Positions 12,802 to 14,746 of a DNA stretch of 64,000 bases are shown piece by piece. This DNA is from Escherichia coli (GTDB lineage Bacteria > Pseudomonadota > Gammaproteobacteria > Enterobacterales > Enterobacteriaceae): NCBI RefSeq assembly GCF_003790525.1, contig NZ_CP033635.1; one strand, 5' to 3'. Below the pieces are notes generated by a model. That model saw only the letters and a program-made list of their open reading frames with translations. It ran no database searches and was not told the origin of the DNA. The position numbers and the translations under genes are program-made. Within the stretch, counting starts at the first letter, position 1. Every line of letters begins with the position of its first letter.

Positions 12802-12955
12802 AATGTGCCTGTCAAATGGACGAAGCAGGGATTCTGCAAACCCTATGCTACTCCGTCGAGCCGTCAATTGTCTGATTCGTTACCAATTATGACAACTTGA
12901 CGGCTACATCATTCACTTTTTCTTCACAACCGGCACAAAAGACACCCTCTGCCTA

Positions 12956-13378
12956 TCATTCGATAGTCTCAAAATATTCCACCTGCAGAGAATCACGGTG
13001 CTCAATGATGCAATAACGCTGGAAATTATTTGCATAATCACTTTTATCATGAAAAAACCATATACAATCGTTTTGTAGACTCGGTCCCATTCCTTTCAAA
13101 AAATCTATTAGCTTTGCTTTCTGAAGAAAAATATTATCTATATTTCGCCATGTAACAATCACTCTTGTTTGCATATCATCAACATTATAGTAATAGCTAT
13201 ACTCGGCTACGTTTGATATATTTGGCAAATTTCGCAAACTCTCTGGCGTATAAAGGAAAAATGGGGAAAGTTCATGCTGTGTATAGTGATGTTCCTTTGA
13301 CATCAATGAGATATAAGCATAGAAAAATATAAAGAATAAAACTAAAAATGATAATAAAATATAAATATATTTTGACAT
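12956..13378 (-). CDS. Hypothetical small protein, 140 aa, N-terminal transmembrane anchor; strain-specific insertion
   Basis: ORF with ATG start; residues ~5-25 IYILLSFLVLFFIFFYAYISL form one hydrophobic helix; extremely AT-rich codons; 6 nt downstream of the 283-aa ORF on the same strand. Confidence 0.65.
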   Translation of the reverse strand: MSKYIYILLSFLVLFFIFFYAYISLMSKEHHYTQHELSPFFLYTPESLRNLPNISNVAEYSYYYNVDDMQTRVIVTWRNIDNIFLQKAKLIDFLKGMGPSLQNDCIWFFHDKSDYANNFQRYCIIEHRDSLQVEYFETIE

Positions 13379-13384
13379 CTCTAC

Positions 13385-14236
13385 TCACGACCTGTGCGGA
13401 TAATGAGGGTTTAAGAAAAGAAAAAGCGGTCTTTCAAAGGGAGATTCTGAAAACTTTATAGCTCCCGAACTTGATAATGAACTATACAACTCATGATTTA
13501 TTCTGTTTTTATCTTTATAATAATTAGTAATAGGTCTATTATTATATTGATTATATAACAATGTTGAAAAAGACTCATCTAATGGCTTTATATAATTTAA
13601 CCATTCTGGAAGCTTCTTTTTTATTAGTTGATTTTTTTTAAAAGGAGGATGGGTTGTAAATAAGAATGGCGTAAACTCAGTATTTTTAAAATTCCCTGGC
13701 GCTCCATATGTATCCCATATTTGTAAGGCTTTTGTGTAAGATAAAGGTTTTGCCAATAAAAGTGGATCGGGGCCTGTTCCAAATACACGATAAAAACCAA
13801 TCAAGTCTGAGACTAAATCTTCTGCACTAAATCCGCTATCAGTATACCAGTTAAAAATAAATGAGTTTTGCCATGCTTCAAACCTCTTCGCAGTTCCATA
13901 CATTAACGTTAAGGCAACTCTTGCTTTAAGAGTGGGTGAAAGACATGAACGAACCATAACCTTCGTATAAACACCGGTATGAAATGTAAGATCTACTCCT
14001 AATATTTTTTCCCGAATTCCCATTTCCTGATGATAATCAACAGGAAAATACCAATCATGAAATTCATCGTAATATGTTGAAAAATGTTCTTGCTCCAATT
14101 TTCTTTTTAATATTCTGGCATCTTGTCCCTGAGCATGCCCCAAATCGATCCAACCTAACTCTTCGGTATAAACTAATCCATACTTTTTCGTTGTTGCAAA
14201 TATTCCATCAGTAATATCGTTACGTTTGCTCATCAC
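13385..14236 (-). CDS. Hypothetical protein, 283 aa, soluble, aromatic-rich, single Cys; strain-specific insertion
   Basis: Intact 283-codon ORF in low-GC DNA, preceded by ~510 bp AT-rich non-coding leader; no TM or signal peptide; no motif I can assign. Confidence 0.7.
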   Translation of the reverse strand: MMSKRNDITDGIFATTKKYGLVYTEELGWIDLGHAQGQDARILKRKLEQEHFSTYYDEFHDWYFPVDYHQEMGIREKILGVDLTFHTGVYTKVMVRSCLSPTLKARVALTLMYGTAKRFEAWQNSFIFNWYTDSGFSAEDLVSDLIGFYRVFGTGPDPLLLAKPLSYTKALQIWDTYGAPGNFKNTEFTPFLFTTHPPFKKNQLIKKKLPEWLNYIKPLDESFSTLLYNQYNNRPITNYYKDKNRINHELYSSLSSSGAIKFSESPFERPLFLFLNPHYPHRS

Positions 14237-14712
14237 AATCTCCCCTCAAAAAAAACGTATAGCAAATAATATCAATAAGGAAAAATATTATTTTTCAATG
14301 TTTTTTTGTATACAATTCATTTTATGAATGAATTTACAAAGATAGCTGCGCCTGATACCGCTACACTTTTGCCAGACCATGTTCTCCTCTGAGGGAGTAA
14401 CTGGCGCTTTTCATAGAATGCCGTACTTTTTTCAACAACTGCCACATCGAACGGCATTTATGGTGGCGTGAAGTGCCTGCCATAACCGCTCAATGTGGTG
14501 TTCCTACGATGAACAAACCGCTTGATATATTCTCCTGATGCAACCGGACAATATGTTCATGATGGGTATCCCGATACATAAGCCTTCGTTTTATTTTTAC
14601 AAAAAGAAATCGTTGTCGATATTTTATCAAGAAAAAAATAATTCAGGTAAAACGATTCAACTAAAAATAACTAAAATTAATCCCCCGTGAAATATATAAA
14701 TAACGTCAGATG

Positions 14713-14745
14713 AAGAAAGCAAGGGGGGCCCCCCCTTGCTTTCTT
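14713..14745. other. Perfect 16-bp GC-clamped palindrome at the insertion/araC junction
   Basis: aagaaagcaagggggg / ccccccttgctttctt immediately after the araC stop codon. Confidence 0.7.
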
Positions 14746-14746
14746 A

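Follow-up and report, generated by a model that had tools for sequence, protein, structure and literature searches.

A candidate orphan type VI-type effector–immunity pair with a CapCone/DUF4056 Lipocone domain at the araC end of Escherichia coli SMS-3-5

Introduction

Tae4–Tai4 and Tse1–Tsi1 are cargo effectors of type VI secretion systems (T6SS) that act in the periplasm and are paired with periplasmic immunity proteins, and the colicin M-type proteins are lipid II-cleaving bacteriocins carried on small toxin–immunity plasmids. TelC of Streptococcus intermedius is a lipid II phosphatase toxin, delivered by the Esx/type VII secretion system (T7SS) and encoded with the immunity protein TipC. 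TelC gives its name to the ClaspCone-CapCone-TelC clade of the Lipocone superfamily, in which DUF4056 is one of three CapCone families (Burroughs, Nicastro & Aravind, 2025, eLife; below, Burroughs et al., 2025), and a 2024 survey flagged a DUF4056 bicistron inside the T6SS cluster of Salmonella pathogenicity island 6 (SPI-6) as a candidate T6SS effector. Here we describe a two-gene cassette, genes A and B, that lies beside araC in a 64,000-nucleotide stretch of E. coli DNA (RefSeq assembly GCF_003790525.1, contig NZ_CP033635.1; this whole stretch is called the window below), the sequence of which is that of strain SMS-3-5 (100% match to NC_010498.1). With moderate confidence, we read A and B as effector and immunity protein of an orphan T6SS-type pair whose targets are lipid head groups in the periplasm; our confidence that they are a toxin–immunity pair in general is somewhat higher.

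The closest described relatives are the CapCone/DUF4056 proteins of Burroughs et al. (2025). Common to both are sequence homology, the signature residues, the low hydrophobicity of a soluble protein and, in the predicted model of A, a beta-hairpin leading into the His-bearing helix, and also the standalone domain, the operon with a Mog1/PsbP-fold protein, and the T6SS and Rhs contexts. The clade of A differs by an added C-terminal extension of about 60 residues and an Asp at D140+4, and A alone misses the Pfam threshold. Its partner differs as well, B being anchored by a transmembrane (TM) helix, predicted to be periplasmic and read here as an immunity protein, not as a T6SS adaptor. We also report a linkage to hcp, whereas 'Hcp' occurs 0 times in Burroughs et al. 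(2025).

Likeness to TelC–TipC lies in the shared ClaspCone-CapCone-TelC clade, for which the superfamily paper describes in TelC a pocket of His/Glu/Asp type working on a phosphate-linked lipid head group, and in the topology of the conflict: a toxin produced in the cytoplasm works beyond the membrane, on whose outer face the immunity protein is located (for A and B, this is a prediction). Delivery is different, LXG/T7SS for TelC and hcp/Rhs contexts for A, and B is unrelated to TipC as far as the two were compared. No structural or sequence similarity of A to TelC was detectable; TelC-specific features are an Asp at +6 paired with a C-terminal Arg.

Like the orphan hcp–effector–immunity modules, the pair would consist of a small effector without a signal peptide and a translationally coupled gene for an exported immunity protein; its copies are scattered outside the main T6SS cluster, sometimes directly behind an orphan hcp, several paralogous pairs can share a genome, and the presumed immunity gene evolves faster than the effector gene. 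It is unlike them in that the catalytic fold of A is unrelated to those of amidase, glycosidase and lipase effectors, that A would act on a lipid head group or polyprenyl carrier and not on peptidoglycan or acyl chains, and that no hcp accompanies the E. coli copy. With colicin M, the pair would share the target class, an undecaprenyl-pyrophosphate-linked peptidoglycan precursor in the periplasm, and a membrane-anchored periplasmic immunity protein, and one member of the A–B family is the main cargo of a 2.7-kb plasmid. The fold of A is unrelated to that of colicin M, however, A has no receptor-binding or translocation domains, there is no lysis gene, and the A–B cassette is chromosomal in nearly all cases.

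Results

Gene A and the CapCone/DUF4056 signature

The two co-oriented minus-strand open reading frames (ORFs) of the initial annotation, 6 nt apart, are found in both the ORF list and RefSeq:

Gene A, 13385..14236, minus strand: 283 amino acids (aa) from a GTG start; the RefSeq start is the ATG at 14233, one codon later. RefSeq WP_000044498.1, 'hypothetical protein'.
Gene A, residues 2-221: DUF4056/CapCone-type Lipocone domain, with putative catalytic residues H34, E120, Q123 and D140.
Gene A, residues 222-283: clade-specific C-terminal extension.
Spacer between the stop of A and the start of B, 13379..13384, minus strand: 6 nt.
Gene B, 12956..13378, minus strand: 140 aa; signal-anchor helix at residues 3-26, then a periplasmic alpha/beta domain, Mog1/PsbP-like (predicted). 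RefSeq WP_000049680.1, 'hypothetical protein'.

Homologues of A were sought by a word-indexed search and by a full scan, and at a threshold of E<=1e-3 these returned 268 and 300 proteins, respectively, mostly from Enterobacterales and also from Vibrio, Exilibacterium, Thiobius and others. Pfam, NCBIfam, PADLOC and PHROGs scans of A and B gave nothing significant, and it had been stated that A holds no assignable motif; the DUF4056/CapCone signature is nonetheless present and conserved. Pfam PF13265 is carried by six relatives of A (38-41% identity to A, E of about 1e-37 to 1e-34), and DUF4056 was matched by 12 of 101 aligned members of the A family at E<=1e-3 and by 44 at E<=0.1. Among the same 101 proteins there were also weak matches to VanZ and DUF2279, which are other Lipocone families. 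When the profile of the 283-aa clade was aligned by hhalign with the profile of DUF4056-positive members, the two matched over 207 columns, corresponding to A residues 2-221, with a probability of 100% and E=7e-63. Because relatives carry PF13265 and the profiles align in this manner, the membership of A in DUF4056 is, at the level of sequence comparison, transitive but strong.

The residues that define the CapCone families (Burroughs et al., 2025) are a Gly six positions before the H2 His together with an xD motif four positions before it; a Glu and a further polar residue at the end of H3; and, in H4, S/GxxSxx with an aromatic residue and a Ser at -4/-3 of the Asp, a small residue and an Asn at +3/+4, and a Gly near the end of H4. 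In A, the H2 signature is found as GWIDLGH, with G28 six residues before H34 and D31 in the xD motif. G28 and D31 are invariant and H34 is conserved in at least 90% of the 101 sequences, all three being invariant in the 20-sequence clade. The H3 residues are F119-E120 and Q123 (Q123 invariant, E120 at least 90% conserved), all at the C-terminal end of the helix modelled at 101-123. SGFSAED provides the H4 signature, with S134 and, at -4/-3 of D140, F136-S137; S137 is invariant, S134, E139, D140 and G147 are at least 90% conserved, and G147 stands at the end of helix 4. The single departure is at D140+4, where the family consensus EDLVSNLIG gives way to S143-D144 in the E. coli clade, an Asp replacing the Asn. 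As this Asp is invariant across the whole 283-aa clade, it is a feature of the clade and not a sign of decay.

The AlphaFold2 (AF2) model of A (mean predicted local distance difference test score, pLDDT, 87.9) contains a hairpin (21-24/28-31), a helix (38-49), a long hairpin (61-96) and two further helices (101-123 and 140-152). This order fits the published CapCone description, a four-helix cone in which a beta-hairpin 'clasp' leads into the His-bearing helix H2 and a 'cap' covers a pocket with the active-site residues at its aperture; in the model, E120/Q123 and D140 are carried by the last two helices. A Foldseek search of the model against AFDB50 recovered only family members, uncharacterised or labelled DUF4056, and one RHS protein. 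The extension of about 60 residues at the C-terminus is conserved in the 283-aa clade of E. coli, Citrobacter, Salmonella and Rahnella. That A lacks a TM segment and B has one N-terminal helix, as first annotated, agrees with the maximal 19-residue Kyte–Doolittle mean of 0.96 in A and with the AF2 helix at residues 3-26 of B. Homology and signature together mark A as a soluble Lipocone protein of the CapCone/DUF4056 type.

As a separate observation, SMS-3-5 encodes at yjdF (4,689,892-4,690,521) a protein annotated as DUF2238, a family that has also been placed in the Lipocone superfamily (Burroughs et al., 2025).

Gene B and its pairing with gene A

A word-indexed homologue search with B found only near-identical E. 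coli proteins, and the B family emerged via the gene downstream of A, which was extracted from 80 A loci on one-genome-per-species contigs. In at least 74 of these 80 loci, A is directly followed by an ORF of 127-158 aa that has an N-terminal TM helix and is homologous to B, including a motif Y-T-E-Q-D...Y-x-F-Y-T-P...P-R-I-S that aligns with the E. coli protein. The start of B lies between -8 and +15 nt relative to A in most loci, mostly with a 4- or 8-nt overlap, which suggests translational coupling. Many genomes hold two or three paralogous A–B pairs. Since A has hundreds of homologues and the A–B pairing recurs in at least 74 of the 80 loci, comparative sequence analysis indicates that both ORFs are genuine genes and not chance occurrences.

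Comparison of 2,775 locus pairs showed B to be the faster-diverging protein in 99.6% of them (median identity 33% for B and 54% for A). The B proteins have the charge bias of the positive-inside rule, with 3.2 positive charges before the TM helix, and in 50 of 75 the ectodomain contains two cysteines. On the basis of the charge bias, the ectodomain Cys pair and the faster divergence than A, we predict that B has its N-terminus inside and its C-terminus outside, the domain being in the periplasm, and we assign it a putative immunity role. Its best structural matches are periplasmic or exported proteins, namely PA1624, the PknH ectodomain and DcrB. B does not have the properties of an Eag/DUF1795 chaperone, that is, of a soluble cytosolic protein that binds N-terminal TM segments of effectors.

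Genomic context of the A–B family

Neighbouring ORFs were clustered across the 80 loci, with flanks of up to 8 kb. Besides B, a single specific neighbour recurs, a 159-aa Hcp/TssD protein (TIGR03344, 178.7 bits; PF05638, E=4.9e-18), which was seen in 14 loci of 8 genera; the remaining recurrent clusters resemble generic families (ATP-binding cassette ATPases, LysR-type regulators). In six loci, from Buttiauxella, Vibrio, Pseudenterobacter, Pectobacterium (two species) and Brenneria, hcp is directly upstream on the same strand, and in Vibrio the order is hcp, 38 nt, A, 1 nt, B. The hcp gene is convergent and just past B in six Xenorhabdus species, and it is nearby in Photorhabdus and Rahnella.

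A second connection to secreted toxins comes from fusions. In one relative (P0266), residues 83-160 form an RHS-associated core (TIGR03696, 72.7 bits) and the A domain comes after it as the C-terminal tip, at 169-327; a second case is the RHS core protein A0A7K3WRL0 of AFDB, recovered as a match to the A model. Weak, below-cut-off C-terminal matches to the LysM model were seen in two relatives of A, and Pfam LysM matched three aligned members.

On plasmid pJE05 of Erwinia sp. Ejp617 (NC_017444.1, 2,691 bp), homologues of A (1954-2658) and B (from 2655 across the record origin to 410) are the only recognisable cargo. The B gene is unlisted in PLSDB because it crosses the start of the record. 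pJE05 is non-mobilizable, and its layout resembles that of small bacteriocin plasmids. The A family was matched 13 times among 72,556 plasmid records, and we rejected a mainly plasmid-borne lifestyle on that count. In phage records, the family is represented by one dubious 2-kb entry among 50,697, OR845577.1 ('Escherichia phage ECO95 1-6-1', 2,034 bp, unannotated), which contains an A homologue with 41% identity and is probably a bacterial or plasmid fragment, not a phage. A phage origin of the cassette was likewise rejected, the family being essentially absent from phage records.

The island and the araC junction

Genes A and B lie in a low-GC (guanine plus cytosine) island of about 1.8 kb, with a GC content of 0.25-0.38 over 12850-14500 against 0.53-0.60 in the thiPQ, yabI and araCBA flanks. 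Its other features are:

Stretch between the araC stop and the start of A, 14237..14746, minus strand: 510 bp, GC about 0.31-0.42.
Shine–Dalgarno-like sequence GAGGGGAG, ~14240-14247, minus strand: in the 510-bp stretch before A.
Very AT-rich stretch, 14250-14340: inside the 510-bp stretch before A.
Remnant of an IS630-family transposase pseudogene, 14361..14500, minus strand: 140 bp, as annotated by RefSeq.
GC-rich hairpin AGGGGGGG/CCCCCCTT, 14721..14736, minus strand: directly past the araC stop, resembling an intrinsic terminator.
Left boundary repeat GCTGGATGTGAATAA, 14747..14761, minus strand: Citrobacter-type araC terminus, AraC ending in ...RAGCE*.
Right boundary, 12887..12934, minus strand: remnant of an E. 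coli-type araC 3' tail, GCCGGTTGTGAAGAAAAAGTGAATGATGTAGCCGTCAAGTTGTCATAA (AGCEEKVNDVAVKLS*), beside yabI.

The 85 bp between yabI and araC that had been given as the approximate K-12 spacing is exactly what we measured. Placing the insertion between araC and yabI was right as to the neighbours, but the island interrupts the 3' end of araC and not the intergenic spacer. Similarly, the very AT-rich leader that had been noted, and likened to an H-NS-type silenced promoter, does include the stretch at 14250-14340, but it also contains the araC terminator hairpin and the IS630 remnant, and is thus in part IS debris. A simple sigma-70 scan of the 510-bp leader returned no promoter on the minus strand, and no family reached its gathering score in an Rfam scan of the island. 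The IS630 remnant is also present in other E. coli carriers (genomes H1-H3 and Nissle 1917) and absent from the Citrobacter locus, which has a 167-nt spacer instead. Related IS630 copies occur elsewhere in many E. coli genomes (268 records, 80-90% identity).

AraC is 281 aa long in SMS-3-5 and 292 aa in K-12, and the K-12-type tail of araC, GCCGGTTGTGAAGAAAAAGTG...TCATAA (AGCEEKVNDVAVKLS*), is kept as the remnant at 12887-12934; the right boundary is an imperfect direct repeat of the left. The order araC-[A-B]-yabI is shared by Citrobacter freundii and by one Salmonella enterica isolate, with A proteins 68-70% identical to that of E. coli. In Citrobacter (locus L002), araC ends with the same 15 nt as the left boundary of SMS-3-5, and the module is a 1,489-bp unit between perfect 17-nt direct repeats, CGCTGGATGTGAATAAA, of the araC stop region (L002 9818-9834 and 11307-11323). 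At the Salmonella copy, the repeat is degenerate. SMS-3-5 combines a left repeat of Citrobacter type with a right one of E. coli type; we therefore infer from these sequences that recombination brought the cassette into E. coli from a relative in which it was by then downstream of araC. The acquisition would have replaced the last 11 codons of araC.

Further observations were made at this site and around it. The perfect Citrobacter repeats suggest a single crossover or a site-specific insertion at the gene end. The 292-aa AraC of E. coli looks as if the 281-aa form had been extended by read-through of its stop codon (TAA to GAA). Enterobacter sp. ENT03 (L011) and Trabulsiella guamensis (L010) have a pair of the 283-aa type past araBAD, next to polB and not between araC and yabI; with the pair on the other side of ara in these two, there would have been at least two landings near ara, or a relocation. 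The B homologue of Citrobacter freundii is only 100 aa long, compared with 140 aa (L002 10855-11157), and a second assembly (L003) has no gene annotated at that place; the immunity gene may be decaying in this species. Beyond yabI, the thiQ-yabI intergenic region (11900-12055) is 57-77% identical between SMS-3-5 and K-12 and has 44 gap positions; in the neighbouring 100-nt windows across yabI, identity is 91-100%.

Distribution in E. coli and decay of gene A

The initial annotation proposed looking at the spread of the insertion across E. coli genomes, and the cassette proves to be accessory: it is present in 486 of 5,426 complete genomes (~9%), always chromosomal, in single copy and at least 98% identical. 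Among the carriers are SMS-3-5 (phylogroup F), NRG 857C (B2), Nissle 1917, NC101 and sequence type 95 (ST95)/avian pathogenic E. coli (APEC) strains, the last three of which we take to be phylogroup B2 as well. Gene A of Nissle 1917 has lost 1 bp (CCC to CC on the plus strand, at about 14011-14013 of the window) and is thereby split into ORFs of 77 and 190 aa, with B intact. About 9 of 60 sampled carriers have three ORFs annotated under the match, as in Nissle; most of those sampled have two, as in SMS-3-5. To judge by these reading frames, the putative toxin gene is decaying in some lineages while B stays intact.

A complete T6SS, two hcp genes included, is encoded by the adherent-invasive E. 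coli (AIEC) strain NRG 857C. In SMS-3-5, a tblastn search with Hcp found no hcp in the 64-kb window, and we found no statement in the literature on a T6SS in this strain. A second flagellar (Flag-2-like) cluster was seen in SMS-3-5 near the aspV region (NC_010498.1, 255-275 kb).

Discussion

As a kind, the T6SS effector–immunity pair has already been described computationally, and so has the CapCone/DUF4056 fold family. What is new here is an uncharacterised member whose clade has its own extension and whose Mog1/PsbP-fold partner is TM-anchored. The suggestion that this is an undescribed system was thus too strong, as the family has been classified and predicted to include toxins (Burroughs et al., 2025) and the SPI-6 candidate was flagged in 2024. 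Three analogies had been offered for the pair. That with effector/immunity pairs gains from the faster evolution of B, the hcp linkage and the Rhs fusions; those with toxin–antitoxin modules and anti-phage systems lose, no PADLOC match having been found and B being predicted to be periplasmic.

In the model that we favour, A, which lacks a signal peptide, is made in the cytoplasm, and its H34/E120/Q123/D140 pocket would attack a phosphate-linked lipid head group, by analogy with other Lipocone members. The likely targets would be envelope precursors linked to undecaprenyl-(pyro)phosphate, such as lipid II, at the periplasmic face of the inner membrane of the prey. A would probably reach them as cargo of the Hcp tube, a route suggested by the gene linkage in other genera. 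The toxin would be harmless in the cytoplasm of its producer because the target is on the periplasmic side. B, predicted to be tethered to the inner membrane and to expose its Mog1/PsbP-like domain to the periplasm, would neutralise A arriving from sister cells. The cassette itself would have entered E. coli as a piece of about 1.8 kb, from a relative in which it lay downstream of araC. As to the substrate, precursors linked to undecaprenyl-pyrophosphate or undecaprenyl-phosphate are a tentative assignment that draws on analogy with the superfamily.

Several points weigh against the reading of A and B as an orphan T6SS-type pair. No T6SS was found in SMS-3-5 at the aspV, metV, pheV and pheU sites, which together with the window are the parts of the genome that were covered, and the strain may thus have the toxin without a delivery system. 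In 66 of the 80 loci (flanks up to 8 kb), including all those of the E. coli/Citrobacter/Salmonella clade, no T6SS gene was among the clustered neighbours. A, at 283 aa, is large for an Hcp cargo. A alone matched Pfam DUF4056 only at E=0.6, below threshold, and no solved structure matched it, nor was any solved Lipocone structure recovered. The lipid substrate of A is pure inference, and literature searches on DUF4056 and Lipocone returned computational work only. Finally, Burroughs et al. (2025) name CapCone-1 and CapCone-2 among the toxin families, and not CapCone-DUF4056.

Among the other explanations, the one that survives best, although we hold it unlikely, is that the E. coli cassette is a decaying relic without function, either unexpressed or with an inactive toxin; this partly overlaps with the effector–immunity reading. 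It would account for the IS630 debris upstream, the lack of a promoter-like site in the leader, the frameshift in Nissle 1917 with about 9 of 60 sampled carriers showing three ORFs, the lack of a T6SS at the four canonical sites of SMS-3-5, and the replacement of the conserved Asn at D140+4 by Asp in the E. coli clade. It fits poorly with SMS-3-5, where both ORFs are intact, every other signature residue is conserved and a good Shine–Dalgarno sequence precedes A. The 486 copies are all at least 98% identical, most of those sampled having two ORFs, and the Asp at D140+4 is invariant across the 283-aa clade.

Next comes the proposal that A is a toxin and B is not its immunity protein but a membrane-anchored accessory of the Mog1/PsbP/DUF1795 type that loads or exports A, immunity being absent or encoded elsewhere, which we consider rather improbable. 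Eag chaperones are soluble, cytosolic and usually encoded upstream, and they bind N-terminal TM segments of effectors, whereas A has no such segment. The TM anchor of B in at least 74 of 80 loci, its predicted periplasmic orientation and its conserved Cys pair all speak against this proposal, as do structural matches to periplasmic or exported proteins (PA1624, the PknH ectodomain, DcrB). In addition, faster divergence than the partner is typical of immunity proteins.

We also doubt, to a greater degree, that the pair modifies envelope lipids of its own cell with no role in conflict, for instance by remodelling polyprenyl-phosphate-linked glycans or phospholipid head groups with A at the cytoplasmic face and B as its membrane partner. 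It is true that most Lipocone families are housekeeping enzymes of lipid, peptidoglycan or exopolysaccharide metabolism, that CapCone-DUF4056 is missing from the toxin families of Burroughs et al. (2025), and that most loci lie between core genes with no secretion genes nearby. A housekeeping pair would hardly be expected, however, to be so patchy (9% of E. coli genomes) and yet present as several paralogous pairs in some genomes, to be fused to Rhs as a toxin tip and linked to hcp in 8 genera, or to form the main cargo of a 2.7-kb plasmid. Nor do biosynthetic genes recur beside the pair, and in Nissle 1917 it is A that is frameshifted and B, the rapidly evolving partner, that is intact.

Least probable is a two-gene anti-phage (abortive infection) or toxin–antitoxin module, with A as sensor or enzyme and B as effector or antitoxin: a low-GC accessory cassette of two tightly coupled genes, one of them for a small TM protein, has the look of one, and one locus adjoins ParE/Phd and HEPN genes, but we rejected both readings, as the defence-system scan called for at the outset (PADLOC-DB v2) gave no family at E<=1 for A or B, PHROGs gave no meaningful match, phage records gave one dubious 2-kb entry in 50,697, no defence-gene neighbours recur in the 80 loci, a periplasmic domain of B would be unsuited to a cytoplasmic antitoxin, and the Rhs and hcp associations indicate secreted toxins.

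If the parts of the effector–immunity reading are put together in their most specific form, A would represent the first class of Hcp-carried T6SS effectors to kill by cutting or transferring, in the periplasm of the prey, the phosphate-linked head groups of undecaprenyl-linked precursors (lipid II, or the carriers of O-antigen and enterobacterial common antigen) by means of a Wnt/SAA-related Lipocone fold. B would stand for a new class of TM-anchored Mog1/PsbP-fold immunity proteins, and the two would travel as a repeat-flanked cassette of 1.5-1.8 kb that rides mini-plasmids and inserts at gene ends. We regard this joint picture as possible yet doubtful; were it true, carriage in B2 lineages (Nissle 1917, AIEC, APEC) could affect competition in the gut.

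In conclusion, the araC junction is a clean, small example of a short cassette moving between Citrobacter- or Salmonella-like relatives and E. coli, and altering the C-terminus of a regulator as it does so. Should the cassette be inert, the finding would amount to two genes that can now be annotated correctly. If A is an active toxin, it would give a tractable E. coli entry into the CapCone/DUF4056 branch of the Lipocone superfamily and would extend the repertoire of T6SS effectors to an activity against lipid carriers. With its presence in such well-studied and medically relevant strains as Nissle 1917, NRG 857C, NC101 and ST95 APEC, the cassette could contribute to strain-to-strain competition in the gut.

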